A stretch of DNA of 64,000 nucleotides from Candidatus Liptonbacteria bacterium (GTDB lineage: Bacteria; Patescibacteriota; Minisyncoccia; UBA6257; 2-01-FULL-56-20). The stretch lies in contig JAHFLL010000001.1 of assembly GCA_023244895.1 (NCBI GenBank), positions 617,802-681,801 of the forward strand. The letters run 5' to 3'. How positions within the stretch are numbered: position 1 is the stretch's first letter; each line of letters opens with the position of its first letter. A program made the translations under genes and the position numbers. The notes beneath the pieces were generated by a model, which worked only from the letters and a program-made list of their open reading frames with translations, had not been told where the DNA came from and did not search any database. This document shows positions 38,262 through 42,364 of the stretch, in pieces.

Positions 38262-38699
38262 TTAAAAATTAATAAAGAAGGCGCGGTTTACGTTGCCGTT
38301 TCTACCAACCGTGCGTACTTCCACCTTGTCAATATCTATGGGCGGAGTCGTGGCACAATCCAGAAGTGATCCGCTAGAATTTTTGCAAGTCATCGTGGAC
38401 GACACGGAGGATTTAGCGTCTGCAAAAGTCGGAGATGGCAAGGGACTGGCGGTGATGAAAAAGTTATGCAGGGTCCACTCCAGCCCCGCGTCCGCGGCGT
38501 AAATCGCTTTCATAGAATTTGCCATATCCGTGCTCTGGCGAATTTGGTACACCATTAGCAAGCCAGCGATAGTTGTGGCGCCAAGCATAGTGCCACCCAA
38601 GGCGAGCACGGTCATTATCATAGCCTGCCCCGACACCAAACCGGCTTTACGCTCGCTTGGCGCAGGGACCCGACTAGAGTGGGCTCTTATCATGTGCAC
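38262..38699 (-). CDS. PilX-like minor pilin / pilus assembly protein (N-terminal domain)
   Basis: N-terminal hydrophobic segment GQAMIMTVLALGGTMLGATTIAGLL resembling the PilX N-terminus; small size. Confidence 0.5.
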   Translation of the reverse strand: MHMIRAHSSRVPAPSERKAGLVSGQAMIMTVLALGGTMLGATTIAGLLMVYQIRQSTDMANSMKAIYAADAGLEWTLHNFFITASPLPSPTFADAKSSVSSTMTCKNSSGSLLDCATTPPIDIDKVEVRTVGRNGNVNRAFFINF

Positions 38700-38702
38700 G
38701 GG

Positions 38703-39119
38703 CTATTTAATAATCTCTATTTTATCCGCCACAATGGTTCCATTTTTCAAGTCGGAGGTCTTGCCGTAAACCGTAAGTTCGGAATCGTATCTAATATCAG
38801 AAACCGATGCTAAGCTTCTGCTTTTGGCTTTAACGTCCAGCATCACTACCGAGGAGACGCTCTTTATGTCTATGCGCCTCTCCCTGCTCTCCATAAAGGC
38901 TCCCTTGTCGCCCGCAACCATCTCGGGCACAGATAGTCTTATGTCCTCCCCAGCAAACCCATACACCTTACCATTCACGGAAACGTCTACCATCACGGGC
39001 AAAGGAGCGGGAGTCGGACTAGCGGCCAGGAAAAACCACAGGATTCCCCCTAAAACCAACACTATCAACACTGCCGCCACTATCAGTAGGTTTTTATTTT
39101 TATCTTGTTCTTGAAACAT
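38703..39119 (-). CDS. hypothetical membrane-anchored protein
   Basis: N-terminal TM then soluble domain; in pseudopilin/adhesin operon. Confidence 0.5.
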   Translation of the reverse strand: MFQEQDKNKNLLIVAAVLIVLVLGGILWFFLAASPTPAPLPVMVDVSVNGKVYGFAGEDIRLSVPEMVAGDKGAFMESRERRIDIKSVSSVVMLDVKAKSRSLASVSDIRYDSELTVYGKTSDLKNGTIVADKIEIIK

Positions 39120-39142
39120 ATTTTAATTATATACCAACAGAA

Positions 39143-39718
39143 CTAGGTATCCAGGGGTAAACGCGGACTTACCGTAGTCTGTAGGTTTATGGTATTGCCA
39201 GCCAAGTCTAAATCCTTAGCCGCTACCCCAATAGAGATGGTTATTCTCGGCTGTCGTCGGTCGCCGGAGGCATAAGTCTGGTGACCATCCACTCTAAAAT
39301 CCATATATTTAACGCTTACGTTGGCGGCGGTTATTTTTTGGTAGTCGCTCTCGTTCGCGATGCAGACATCACATACTGCCGCCCTTTCAATAGACTCTTC
39401 ATTAAGCCGATAGAAAACCCTTTGGTTCTTGGCGTTAATAAAGTTAACTTGACTCATTGTTCCGCCCGGCAAAAAACTATAGCTCGTGCGCATTTCGCGC
39501 GCCATCTGCTCAATAGTGATGCTGATATTGCTATTCGCGAGAAGTAGGGCTGCCGCCTGGCGCTGACTGCGCAAGGCCCGCGAGAATCCACCTACCGCGA
39601 TACTCACGATAATCGCAAACAGTCCGATTGCGATAACTGTTTCCGCCAAACCGAACCCTCTCCTCCTGAGATGCGGCAGGCCAGGTTTGAAATATGTATT
39701 TGGGGACGTGAATTTCAT
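39143..39718 (-). CDS. type IV pilin-like (pseudopilin) protein with prepilin-type N-terminal domain
   Basis: RRRGFGLAETVIAIGLFAIIVSIAVGG: prepilin cleavage/methylation-like motif followed by hydrophobic helix. Confidence 0.65.
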   Translation of the reverse strand: MKFTSPNTYFKPGLPHLRRRGFGLAETVIAIGLFAIIVSIAVGGFSRALRSQRQAAALLLANSNISITIEQMAREMRTSYSFLPGGTMSQVNFINAKNQRVFYRLNEESIERAAVCDVCIANESDYQKITAANVSVKYMDFRVDGHQTYASGDRRQPRITISIGVAAKDLDLAGNTINLQTTVSPRLPLDT

Positions 39719-39766
39719 TTACTTATCGAGGATACAGAGCTATGAGTCTGGTTCTACTTACTAACC

Positions 39767-42364
39767 TTATTGCCCTCCCGGATTGACTTCGATCAACTTG
39801 CCGCCCGAGAAGTTATACACTCTAACTTTAGAGCCAGCTGGAACGGTTGTGCCTCCACAAGTTAAGGTGTAGCTGGTGGTGGAGGTGGGCGATGCGGTAA
39901 GGGTGCCATAACCAAGGTGGGGCACGCCGTTTACTGCCGGAGAAATACTGCAAGGTTCAGGCTGGCAAACATAACTGAGAGTCGTGGTAGCCGGAGGAGG
40001 TATAACTAAACGGTTTGGATTTATACTCAAAGAACAACGCTCGATCTTAGGGCAGTTATTGGGGCTAACCGTACAGGAGCTGACCCCGGGAGTCGTTATG
40101 TTGGTGCAAACGTTAGCATAATAACTACCGGTATCTATTTCTTGACAGGTTGTGTGATTACAATCCGCGGCGGTAGAACATTCATTAGAGCCCGGTCCAG
40201 CAACCACCGTACAGGCTCCATTGGAGCAGACATTATGCTGATTAAGCTGAATGCCAAAGTTGACCACTTGATTAGAAGAGTCCAAATTCACATGCACGGA
40301 GTCGGCAGTAGTTAGTCTCCAGCCAGCGGGAGGCGCAACCCTTACCCACCAGTCGCCCGCGGCACCAAACTGATACCAGCCGCTCCCATTCGTCCGGGTT
40401 TGGGTAAAGGTTGTTTCATCCGCTGGGTAATATCTGAGCATCACATCTACGTCCTTAACGCCAAGTTCCGGGTTCCCTCCTGTGCCACCTCCATTATCTT
40501 GCACTCCATTTCCGTTCAGGTCATTGAATACGTTACCGGAGACTATTTTGGAAGAAGGAGCGCAGGCATTGTCGCAATTGGAAGAGGCATAAGTTCCGTT
40601 CGCGTCATCCTGAACGCAAGAATTACCGCTACACTTATATTTAGCTGATGTCGGGTTGACGACATTAATAGATAGGTTGGGCGTGAATCCTCCGAACCAG
40701 AGGACGCGCTCTCTTAACATGCGCCACTGGAAATTGTGTCTTTTTACCTCGCTGGGAGCAGTGACATCAAAATCAAAAGTAACCCGATGCCCAGTCGTAA
40801 CCGCCCTCGGGAGCAACACCCGGTCGATTCCCCAGGTAGTGTTGTCCTGAAGATTCTGAGAGCCAAGCTTATAATTCCGGTTCTCGGTCCAGGTATTATT
40901 GCCACAGTTCTCCATAGTTACCGAAACAGAATAAGTCTGGCTCTTATTCATAGTGAGCGGCACATTTTGACTTACATAGTTTGCGCAGTAATCCTCCACA
41001 ACCAGACAGTCGGAGTCGGTAGCGCATGCACTGGAAAATCGGGTTGCATCCCAAACGCAGGAATTCGCGCTGCATTTATATCCTCCGGGAGGACCTCCTC
41101 CACAATCGCTGTCTTTGCTACATTGGTCGGCCCCCGTGTCTCCCGCCACCCAGGCGCAAGAGCTACTGGTTACGCATTTATATCTTCCAACCGAGCAGGC
41201 ACCGTTACAATTGTCAGAAGTATAAGTACCACTATTGTCGTCTCTTATGCAGGAGTTTCCGCTACACTTATATTTTGCGATAGCGCCCGGCTGACTCCAC
41301 GTAATATTGAAAGTGATGGTCGCGCCCGCGCCCAACGCCTGAGTAACACAATTACCCAGCTGGGTTCCGCCCGCGTTTCTAATCTCATAGTTGTAGCCGC
41401 TTGGTCCGCTTACGATGCAGACACCATAATTACCCGGAGCGGCGCTCGCCGTTTTGGTAGTTTCATTAGTGGCAGTTGCCGGACCAGCGTTCCAACTAGA
41501 CGCTCTCCAGTTTCCATTGGAATCCCGAGAATTAACAACTATAGTTCCGTTGCTACCGCCACCACCCACATCAACAGTAAAGCTTTTTTCCATATCCGTT
41601 GGACCATTTCTACCCGGACCGGAAAGTTTTAACGTGAAATCATGCGCCCCTGCCACACTTGTATTCATGGGTATAGTCCACCCGCTAGGCGCGGTTAAGG
41701 GCACAGGCCAAGAGCCCGTACCGTCCGCGGCATTCCCGATGAACATCAAACCACTTAAAGCATCAGACGAGTTCCAGCTAATGCTCGGCCGGGCTGCTCC
41801 CTGGTTTATAGAGAAAGAGCTTACACTGTCTAGATTCGCGATTAGCTCGCGGCGATACACCGTGAACTGTCCTATAAAATCGTTATTGTTACCAAATAAC
41901 TGTTCCGTGCGAATTTTGACCATAAAATAACGCATGCGATCAGGTATGTTGGGATTTATGCCGCCATCATCCGAATCTCTGTTGTAGGTGTCTTGAATAG
42001 TCCCACAATTGCCGGTGCCCCAGGCATTGGTATCGTTAATACACCAATAAACTTTTGGAGTGGGGTTATCGTTTCTTAGGTTTTGATAATGGAATCTATA
42101 TAGCTGACTCGCTCCGCTAAAGTTGTAAGAAAAATCACAGGTTCTATCCGAGCCATTAGAGCTACAACCCCAATTCAAAACTGTTTCACTGGAGACGCCC
42201 GGATTTCCAATCGGCGTCCTGGGAGACACGTCCTCGCAAGAATCTCCGAAATCACCGCTTCCGGGACAGGGCCTGGCCCATGCATTAGAAACCACTACTA
42301 AGTTAATTATGAAAAACGAGGCTAGCAATATGCCCAAAAACAAAGTTGTTTTACGCATATCCAT
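39767..42364 (-). CDS. large secreted Cys-rich repeat protein with SdrD/Cna B-type domain (putative adhesin)
   Basis: 865 aa; signal peptide; three copies of KYKCSGNSC(I/V)xDDxxGTYxSxNCxxAC module; SGNVFNDLNGNGVQDNGG B-type domain; many Cys, Asn/Gly/Thr-rich. Confidence 0.75.
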   Translation of the reverse strand: MDMRKTTLFLGILLASFFIINLVVVSNAWARPCPGSGDFGDSCEDVSPRTPIGNPGVSSETVLNWGCSSNGSDRTCDFSYNFSGASQLYRFHYQNLRNDNPTPKVYWCINDTNAWGTGNCGTIQDTYNRDSDDGGINPNIPDRMRYFMVKIRTEQLFGNNNDFIGQFTVYRRELIANLDSVSSFSINQGAARPSISWNSSDALSGLMFIGNAADGTGSWPVPLTAPSGWTIPMNTSVAGAHDFTLKLSGPGRNGPTDMEKSFTVDVGGGGSNGTIVVNSRDSNGNWRASSWNAGPATATNETTKTASAAPGNYGVCIVSGPSGYNYEIRNAGGTQLGNCVTQALGAGATITFNITWSQPGAIAKYKCSGNSCIRDDNSGTYTSDNCNGACSVGRYKCVTSSSCAWVAGDTGADQCSKDSDCGGGPPGGYKCSANSCVWDATRFSSACATDSDCLVVEDYCANYVSQNVPLTMNKSQTYSVSVTMENCGNNTWTENRNYKLGSQNLQDNTTWGIDRVLLPRAVTTGHRVTFDFDVTAPSEVKRHNFQWRMLRERVLWFGGFTPNLSINVVNPTSAKYKCSGNSCVQDDANGTYASSNCDNACAPSSKIVSGNVFNDLNGNGVQDNGGGTGGNPELGVKDVDVMLRYYPADETTFTQTRTNGSGWYQFGAAGDWWVRVAPPAGWRLTTADSVHVNLDSSNQVVNFGIQLNQHNVCSNGACTVVAGPGSNECSTAADCNHTTCQEIDTGSYYANVCTNITTPGVSSCTVSPNNCPKIERCSLSINPNRLVIPPPATTTLSYVCQPEPCSISPAVNGVPHLGYGTLTASPTSTTSYTLTCGGTTVPAGSKVRVYNFSGGKLIEVNPGGQ

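Follow-up and report, generated by a model that had tools for sequence, protein, structure and literature searches.

A large secreted protein, A865, is encoded within the type IV pilus gene cluster of a Candidatus Liptonbacteria bacterium, in the 64,000-nucleotide (nt) stretch that we analyzed (GCA_023244895.1, contig JAHFLL010000001.1, positions 617,802 to 681,801 of the forward strand; hereafter the window, with all coordinates counted from its first letter). We favor, with a probability of roughly 55%, the reading that A865 is a Sec-exported tip adhesin on the H-I-J-K pilus cluster, that a strand in its C-terminal tail locks it to the K pilin, and that it most likely binds the host cell. 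The parts of this reading differ in strength. The link between A865 and the pilus is well supported by comparing sequences across loci. Docking of the tail to the K pilin (D145) would follow the precedent of known tip proteins, and we infer both the location of A865 at the tip and host-cell adhesion as its most likely role. A865 is best read as a nonhomologous, propeller-less analogue of PilY1.

Gene Neighborhood of A865

The first-pass annotation of this DNA had described A865, B191, C138, and D145 as four co-directional minus-strand genes with short gaps. We found the open reading frames (ORFs) at exactly those bounds, with intergenic gaps of 48, 23, and 3 nt and with ligA 31 nt downstream of D145. 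The exact A865 protein is recorded on an 840,672-bp contig. From species-representative genomes, we assembled 80 loci that surround homologues of B191 and annotated each locus against the window proteins; the homologues are recorded from Candidatus Liptonbacteria, Wolfebacteria, Harrisonbacteria, and other Parcubacteria/Paceibacterota. About 80 loci share a common Paceibacterota backbone, pilMNO-s97-pilB-pilT-pilC-pilA-pilD-H-I-J-K-ligA, where J stands for the B191 family and K for the D145 family. K follows J in 53 loci, and ligA lies immediately downstream of K in 42. The gene order of the window's machinery, which gives PilM_2, PilO, and PilN Pfam matches, recurs in about 60 loci.

The closest comparison is locus L001, where the order pilC-pilA-pilD-H-I-u173-lipoprotein-A865-B191-C138-D145-ligA is contiguous. 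The pilus machinery of the window is 66–84% identical to that of L001, and the L001 neighbors of the A865 orthologue (P0002) are 62–84% identical to the window genes. Locus L002 has the order u173-lipoprotein-lipoprotein-adhesin-pilin-D145-like-ligA. In the window, 3.3 kb of DNA with two lipoprotein genes, a radical S-adenosylmethionine (SAM)/SPASM gene, and a methyltransferase gene interrupt the cluster, and these genes together with u173 part the A865–D145 block from the H177 and I172 pilin genes. Because the backbone is conserved across loci, the four genes belong to the type IV pilus cluster as its distal end and form no separate module. The first-pass annotation had proposed an adhesin module allied to the pilus: its alliance with the pilus is borne out by synteny of adhesin and pilin genes, which is conserved in relatives, but its separate operon dissolves, as B191 and D145 are pilins of the same cluster.

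A Conserved C-Terminal Tail

Large proteins recur at this position. In 11 loci, J and K are separated by a large ORF (at least 300 aa), and more such ORFs lie after J where a K homologue was undetected; the large protein sits between I and J in Liptonbacteria and between J and K in other lineages. Most of these large J/K neighbors have a signal peptide and are rich in Cys. In an all-against-all BLAST comparison, their bodies are dissimilar, and they align at their extreme C-termini alone. The common C-terminal piece consists of an immunoglobulin (Ig)-like domain (CSFSANP...TTYTLxC), a turn, and the motif [ILK]xE[VI]xP, with 0–4 residues to the stop codon. In A865, the tail comprises a Gly turn, an extra β-strand (KLIEV), and then NP; residues 856–859 form a strand in the AlphaFold2 (AF2) model, and the Glu and Pro are invariant in the alignment (A4). 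A hidden Markov model (HMM) of the Ig-plus-tail module finds large proteins in 26 of the compared loci, a few residues from the C-terminus, with the module 15–35 residues from the C-terminus or on a separate ORF in 3 of these 26; within the window, it matches A865 alone.

For the specificity of the tail, we examined the 871 ORFs with 200 aa or more in 84 loci plus the window, with 146 Ig-repeat proteins for comparison. The pattern E[IVL].P.{0,4}$ matches 25 of the 871 ORFs, and 22 of these 25 are large Cys-rich J/K neighbors from 20 independent loci. A profile of the whole module compared with 1.84 billion representative proteins matched 3396, over the Ig-like part alone and often in tandem copies. 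Only 1 of the 146 best nonquery Ig-repeat matches ends in the tail, and that one is a close relative. We considered the whole C-terminal module of ~95 residues as a pilus-specific element and rejected it, as its Ig-like part is generic. With the Ig part generic and the tail nearly confined to J/K neighbors, the tail and not the Ig domain is, judged from these searches, the signature tied to pilus clusters.

This distribution also bears on whether A865 might be an ordinary cell-surface or cell-wall adhesin, or an S-layer-like stalk, that is independent of the pilus and sits in a region tolerant of insertions, its tail serving to anchor or fold the last Ig domain. We consider this unlikely. In its favor, the body is made of generic stalk domains (SdrD_B, NBR1-like, and the Ig-like repeat of the 3396 proteins), the same region also holds unrelated genes (radical SAM, methyltransferase, lipoproteins), a protein of this kind is missing between J and K in 28 of the 80 loci, and the monomer model pairs the tail strand in cis. 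A pilus-independent protein would, however, fit poorly with a tail that is nearly confined to minor-pilin clusters (22 of the 25 matching ORFs, compared with a single one of the 146 generic Ig-repeat proteins) and that is kept across lineages with unrelated bodies and differing insertion points (I–J or J–K). It would also lack an evident anchor: we found no LPXTG, membrane helix, or basic tail in A865, which ends in KLIEVNPGGQ without a hydrophobic segment, and thus no LPXTG or other motif-plus-membrane-helix C-terminal anchor.

It is very improbable that the tail is a signal for processing, for covalent attachment by a peptidase or transpeptidase, or for type II-like release, with no structural docking strand. 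An invariant Glu and Pro in a four-residue core do resemble an enzyme recognition motif, and secretion via the pilus had been suggested in the first-pass annotation. That route is unnecessary, as A865 has its own Sec signal. Moreover, genes for a sortase, an exosortase, or a dedicated protease are absent from the cluster, the motif is not followed by the hydrophobic or basic segment of known C-terminal sorting signals, and in the published model strand addition is not used by substrates of type II secretion (PMC13533445).

Two further features of these loci were observed. Seven tail-bearing proteins (L038, L044, L065, L068, L070, L074, and L079) carry a signal peptide with AQA or ASA at its end and, directly after it, a second long hydrophobic segment, which could serve, after signal peptidase cleavage, as a pilin-like N-terminal helix; A865 has no such second segment. 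In addition, a conserved protein of 82–93 aa lies between the large protein and K in L017, L023, L044, L051, L065, L068, and L074. It has two membrane helices (...KWFWIGIVMGFLN..AGLIYGIAL..EKEHRKEG...) and occurs in many non-Liptonbacteria loci. The window has no counterpart, and C138 is unrelated.

The Four Minor Pilins

The pseudopilin with a prepilin-type N-terminus in the first-pass annotation is B191, which has the leader RRG/FGLAE with Glu+5 (RRG/FGLAETVIAIGLFAII; slash, cleavage site). B191 itself scores 20.0 bits against N_methyl (PF07963/TIGR02532; cut-off 21.2), and 33 of its 35 family members match, with a best E of 1.2e-9; the GFTLxE leader is almost invariant in the family alignment (A1). 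Matches to ComGF are weak (E 0.13 for B191; 7 of 35 members, best 0.0098), as is the match of B191 to GspJ (E 0.06), and a PDB sequence profile search with the family found nothing beyond the N-terminal helix. The family sits between I and K in about 80 loci, and this gene order places B191 as the third minor pilin, in the PilJ/PilW/GspJ position. The public annotation of B191 (P0007, 168 aa) starts 23 codons late and has lost the prepilin leader, which may explain why it has no recorded Pfam domain. Because orthologues keep the leader, the long ORF is, by this sequence comparison, the correct one.

D145 is the fourth minor pilin, in the PilK/PilX/GspK position. Its leader, SG/QAMIM, has no Glu+5, and translation probably starts at the ATG at 38693. 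The family alignment (A2) shows the leader SGQxMILTVLALGG, the motif AADAGxEW, and Glu+5 in 0 of 50 members; every recorded source name in the family is "hypothetical protein". The family adjoins ligA in many loci. PilK-class pilins are invariably without Glu+5, a hallmark of the apical PilK/PilX/GspK subunit (PMC13533445). The AF2 model of D145 (50 sequences; predicted local distance difference test score, pLDDT, 84) has the pilin lollipop shape, with a helix at residues 21–79 and three main strands. The window D145 itself does not match PilX_N (PF14341), which is nonetheless the Pfam family most often matched by its relatives, weakly (12 of 50, best E 0.038). The earlier label "PilX-like" therefore holds for the pilin-shaped model, the missing Glu+5, and the K position, but not for the domain match.

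The remaining two pilins complete the set. H177 has the leader REG/FTLIE, an N_methyl match at E 4e-7, and matches to ComGD and GspH at 1e-5 to 1e-6, below cut-off; I172 has the leader RRG/QALVE and a match to TIGR02523 PilV at E 2e-5, also below cut-off. H177, I172, B191, and D145 are the canonical four-pilin core set. As in GspH-I-J-K, FimU-PilV-PilW-PilX, and ComGD-E-F-G, four pilin genes end with one whose product is without Glu+5. The weak family matches of the window pilins are GspH/ComGD for H, PilV for I, ComGF/GspJ for J, and PilX_N for K, and all except the N-terminal methylation motif fall below curated cut-offs. PDB sequence profile searches with alignments A1, A2, and A3 recovered the N-terminal pilin helix or nothing. 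The window set differs from these systems in that D145 is far smaller than GspK and lacks its α-domain, and in that the pilin genes, consecutive in those systems, are broken here by accessory genes.

Some D145 homologues are fused to large modules, either C-terminal or internal (L073, L054, L059, and L064). The K homologue of L073 has 328 aa, and its 206-residue extension looks vWA-like by eye. Such module-bearing homologues would be modular tip pilins of the D145 family, and they fit K as a display position.

Architecture of A865

A865 begins with a Sec-type signal peptide, read by eye from the translation (MDMRK, a hydrophobic stretch, and SNAWA/RP), and has no prepilin motif. The first-pass annotation had called the protein secreted, an idea that it would have given up for a cytoplasmic protein or one without a signal peptide, and this signal peptide agrees with it. 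The AF2 model of the full-length protein (6-sequence alignment) is all-β with a mean pLDDT of 55, rising to 66–84 in the C-terminal 160 residues; given this poor full-length model, we used domain-level structural matches alone. Foldseek searches with the model return Ig domains of the NBR1/FW type, B domains of SdrD, and stalks of Gram-positive adhesins, among them UafA and Epf.

The body is modular. Residues 31–270 are 47–60% identical to P0002, P0004, and P0005, compared with 9–40% for the middle of the protein; Pfam and PDB searches with this domain gave no match, and it is a possible ligand-binding head. YKC-type Cys-knot modules are positioned at residues 365, 395, and 429 (within residues 361–460) and at 576 (within 571–605), and further Cys-knot modules lie at residues 706–770. 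The first-pass annotation had counted three KYKCSGNSCxxDDxxGTYxSxNC modules and over 60 Cys. Only the modules at 365 and 576 fit that pattern (20 of 28 positions identical between them), those at 395 and 429 are of a different, degenerate type, and A865 has 38 Cys (4.4%). An NBR1-like Ig domain is suggested by a match to N_BRCA1_IG (PF16158) on residues 472–558 (E 2.8e-5, 25.0 bits, below the cut-off of 28) and by Foldseek alignment of residues 461–570 to NBR1 (4ole; probability 1.0, TM-score 0.72). PF16158 is recorded for P0002 and P0003, and P0003 has five copies of the NBR1-like domain. The SdrD/Cna B-type domain named earlier is confirmed: SdrD_B (PF17210) matches residues 611–699 at E 8e-10 (39.3 bits, above the cut-off of 29.7), and a Foldseek search with this region matches SdrD structures. 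DUF11, which had also been suggested, is absent from the Pfam matches at E up to 1.

Relatives of A865 are few (6 in a word-indexed search), and the protein diverges quickly. It is 45% identical to its orthologue P0002, compared with 62–84% for the adjoining genes. Residues 771–865 are the most conserved part (68%), followed by the N-terminal domain (60%), whereas one linker falls to 16%. Pfam and NCBIfam scans at E up to 1 found no PilY1/PilC propeller in A865, and no PilY1/PilC structure appears among the 50 best Foldseek matches listed; the model consists of β-sandwich domains.

Proposed Docking at the Pilus Tip

The closest parallel is PilC/PilY1, the type IVa pilus tip adhesins known from Neisseria, Pseudomonas, and Myxococcus. 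A 2026 study describes these proteins as Sec-exported and disulfide-containing, with diverse N-terminal adhesin domains (PMC13533445). They start pilus assembly: their last ~10 residues add a β-strand in trans to the PilK sheet, with PilJ cradling, and this strand accounts for their retention at the tip (PMC13533445). The type II secretion protein GspK and ComGG instead provide the strand in cis, and MshQ, an unrelated large protein encoded beside mshDOP of the MSHA pilus, is predicted to use the same strand addition (PMC13533445). A865 and its counterparts match the PilC/PilY1 pattern in every feature that we checked, namely a Sec signal, many Cys, a variable body, a location among I, J, and K, and a conserved terminal strand, and we therefore propose the same docking. 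Like PilC/PilY1 and MshQ, A865 is large, Sec-exported, and contains several Cys; like PilC/PilY1, it is encoded with the core minor pilins and combines a variable body with a conserved extreme C-terminus. Addition of a strand in trans to a K subunit without Glu+5 is thus shown for PilC/PilY1, predicted for MshQ (PMC13533445), and proposed for A865.

In the proposed mechanism, A865 would be exported by Sec and stabilized by disulfides, forming a stalk of β-sandwich domains and Cys knots with a lineage-variable body. H177, I172, B191, and D145 would act as core minor pilins equivalent to GspH/I/J/K or FimU/PilV/PilW/PilX, with D145, as it lacks Glu+5, the probable most apical subunit. The terminal strand of A865 (the last ~16 residues, with the Gly turn, KLIEV, and NP) would then add to the small β-sheet of D145 at the J/K interface. 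A865 would thereby be fixed to the priming complex, reach the tip of the pilus, and bind a target surface there, most likely the host cell. The conserved extreme C-terminal tail makes tip display plausible, as it parallels the β-strand addition of PilC/PilY1, and the D145 model, with only three long strands, would agree with a strand supplied in trans.

The differences from PilC/PilY1 are also clear. A865 has neither a β-propeller nor sequence similarity to these proteins (no Pfam match), and its conserved part is limited to the Ig-like domain and the ~16-residue tail. Its gene lies upstream of J or, in its counterparts, between J and K, whereas that of PilC/PilY1 follows K, and unlike the PilC/PilY1 hosts its host is a monoderm-type bacterium belonging to the candidate phyla radiation (CPR). 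By analogy, A865 would work like PilY1/PilC or MshQ yet stand outside that family, as no propeller was found in it.

Other systems share single aspects of this arrangement. In Saccharibacteria (TM7x), PilX1 and PilX2 are likewise Patescibacteria pilus-locus large proteins without a PilD signal and are proposed tip adhesins; they combine a pilin-like N-terminus with a jelly-roll lectin or a 7-bladed propeller (PMC11623550). A865 differs from them in its Sec signal, its lack of a pilin domain, its folds, and its distinct C-terminal tail, and we detected no homology between A865 and the Saccharibacteria large tip proteins. With the MSCRAMM/Sdr adhesins (SdrD, UafA), A865 shares an SdrD_B stalk domain and a beads-on-a-string arrangement of β-sandwiches, but it has only one B-type domain and no LPXTG anchor, SD repeats, or A-domain match. 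The modular pilins PilB and PilC of Streptococcus sanguinis follow the same principle, in which a tip or minor pilin shows an adhesive module; there the module is fused to the pilin, whereas the adhesive body encoded in the window forms a polypeptide of its own.

Several points weigh against a docked tip adhesin. The step from tail to D145 is argued by analogy, and A865 lacks both the β-propeller and a Pfam PilY1/PilC match. Confidence in the A865 model is low (pLDDT 55), and the monomer has the tail strand paired in cis. A Foldseek search of D145 against the PDB gave no match at E 0.001 or better, with the ComZ pilin (6qvi) at E about 1. J and K are adjacent, with no large protein between them, in 28 of 80 loci, and the large protein is therefore either not obligatory or encoded elsewhere. 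A short C-terminal K extension (GGATSTLP type) tends to be missing beside a tail-bearing neighbor (absent from 14 and present in 4 K homologues, compared with 15 and 20 where there is no such neighbor; odds ratio 4.7, p 0.02). This pattern agrees with docking in trans, but it is weak, as the statistics ignore phylogeny and exceptions occur both ways. We did not adopt a strict rule in which K carries the extension in cis only when no tail-bearing protein is present, and keep it as a hint. Finally, a ComFC-like gene with a double zinc ribbon and a phosphoribosyltransferase domain (56089–56796, plus strand), which diverges from pilM, flanks the cluster and hints that the pilus may also serve DNA uptake.

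This last point raises the alternative that A865 is pilus-associated but captures DNA or another noncellular substrate for a competence-type pilus, and not a host, which we judge quite unlikely. CPR bacteria are not known to make their own nucleotides, and their pili have been linked to DNA uptake. Besides the comFC-like gene, ligA is kept immediately downstream of K in 42 loci, and A865 has basic segments (the NBR1-like domain, with an isoelectric point, pI, of 9.4, and the C-terminal segment, with a pI of 8.7). The whole protein, however, is acidic (pI 5.3), Pfam and NCBIfam scans found no known DNA-binding domain in it, and its fast-diverging, domain-shuffled body is better suited to a variable target than to DNA. 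Saccharibacteria also offer a precedent for host contact: large tip proteins without a PilD signal exist there, and PilX2 is needed for efficient host binding (PMC11623550). Host-cell adhesion is the most likely role of A865 because of its domain types, its fast divergence (45% vs 62–84%), and this precedent.

Beyond A865, the [ILK]xE[VI]xP tail could be a portable tag with which Paceibacterota (Parcubacteria) dock arbitrary, fast-evolving, Cys-rich bodies onto the conserved H-I-J-K tip by strand addition in trans. Such proteins would constitute a propeller-less class of adhesins unrelated to PilY1/PilC, with variable bodies that set the host range across a large uncultured radiation. We regard this broader proposal as tentative, at somewhat below even odds.

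Accessory Genes and Signals

Coordinates of all features are collected in Table 1. C138 is the small membrane-anchored protein of the first-pass annotation; it has one N-terminal anchor and no prepilin motif, and its DUF4330 match is weak (E 0.002). Its only detected homologue is in L001 (62% identity), and we class it as a lineage-specific accessory. The two lipoprotein genes form a tandem duplication of 520–525 nt within 42442–43549 (minus strand), in which a 98-nt block encoding the signal peptide, lipobox, and mature N-terminus shows 100% identity between the copies and each gene is followed by the same GC-rich hairpin; this pattern suggests a recent duplication or gene conversion. Lipoprotein homologues adjoin the adhesin gene in L002. 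For C138, u173, and the lipoproteins, no relatives were detected beyond the closest genomes.

Table 1. Features of the A865 Locus, in Window Coordinates
Feature	Position	Strand	Basis
A865	39767–42364	−	865 aa; ORF list
A865 residues 1–30, Sec-type signal peptide	42275–42364	−	translation; helix 4–26 in AF2 model
A865 residues 31–270, N-terminal domain kept within Liptonbacteria subfamily	41555–42274	−	sequence comparison
A865 residues 361–460, three small YKC-type Cys-knot modules	40985–41284	−	13 Cys per 100 residues
A865 residues 461–570, NBR1/FW-type Ig-like domain	40655–40984	−	Pfam sub-threshold + Foldseek
A865 residues 611–699, SdrD B-like (Cna_B-type) stalk domain	40268–40534	−	Pfam PF17210
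A865 residues 771–849, C-terminal Ig-like repeat domain, generic type	39818–40054	−	HMM A4, 90.8 bits
A865 residues 850–865, YNFSGGKLIEVNPGGQ, proposed docking strand	39770–39817	−	alignment A4 + model
B191	39143–39718	−	191 aa; ORF list
C138	38703–39119	−	138 aa; ORF list
D145	38262–38699	−	145 aa; ORF list
GC-rich hairpin between lipoprotein gene and A865	42442–42486	−	repeat D2; twin at 42977–43002 scored terminator-like
Lipoprotein gene pair (156 and 173 aa) just upstream of A865	42497–43549	−	tandem duplication
u173, membrane-anchored	45716–46237	−	homologues beside adhesin gene in L001 and L002 only
I172, second minor pilin	46367–46885	−	sub-cut-off PilV match + conserved position
H177, first minor pilin	46895–47428	−	N_methyl match + conserved position
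pilD, pilA (48323–48796), pilC, pilT, pilB, 97-aa gene, pilO, pilN, pilM	47450–55983	−	ORFs

The hairpin upstream of A865 is a candidate terminator, and the genes from A865 to D145 (and perhaps ligA) may therefore have their own promoter. A TGnTATAAT box abuts the A865 ATG, and TATAAT-like boxes lie 0–7 nt upstream of the ligA, C138, and A865 starts (38212–38246, 39126–39153, and 42365–42380, respectively, minus strand; consensus matches), a spacing that suggests leaderless transcripts. Promoter and terminator scans were not enriched over shuffles.

Within the pilus cluster, the radical SAM/SPASM gene (Radical_SAM E 5e-22, SPASM E 6e-8) and the small gene for a SAM methyltransferase run in the opposite direction (43893–45625, plus strand); the syntenic loci L001 and L002 have neither. 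For this reason, we set aside the radical SAM/SPASM protein as a maturase of the Cys-rich A865. The GC content is 0.545 in 42–44 kb, compared with about 0.48–0.50. In L033, a radical SAM gene lies directly after the K pilin gene. Elsewhere in the window, the 3′ end of tRNA-Asp (36098–36173, minus strand) lies together with a hairpin in a stretch of ~66 nt that recurs as an exact copy, the two being spaced by 170–171 nt (35875–36113), and the ORFs that overlap it are probably artefacts.

Implications

To our knowledge, no member of the Parcubacteria/Paceibacterota has been grown with a defined host, and in the literature that we searched, neither tip adhesins nor the E..P tail are described for Parcubacteria. 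As a probable swappable tip adhesin, A865 gives a concrete handle on how these uncultured bacteria with tiny genomes attach to their partners. Should the tail prove to be a tag for docking at the tip, candidate tip adhesins of hundreds of genomes could be listed by one simple rule, namely a large secreted protein that ends in xE[VI]xP and is encoded in a minor-pilin cluster, and the proteins it selects would be obvious candidates for host-range determinants and for pull-down baits. The β-strand-addition principle of pilus priming would then reach the monoderm radiation and a propeller-less adhesin, and the short terminal strand, not the propeller, would be the transferable element.

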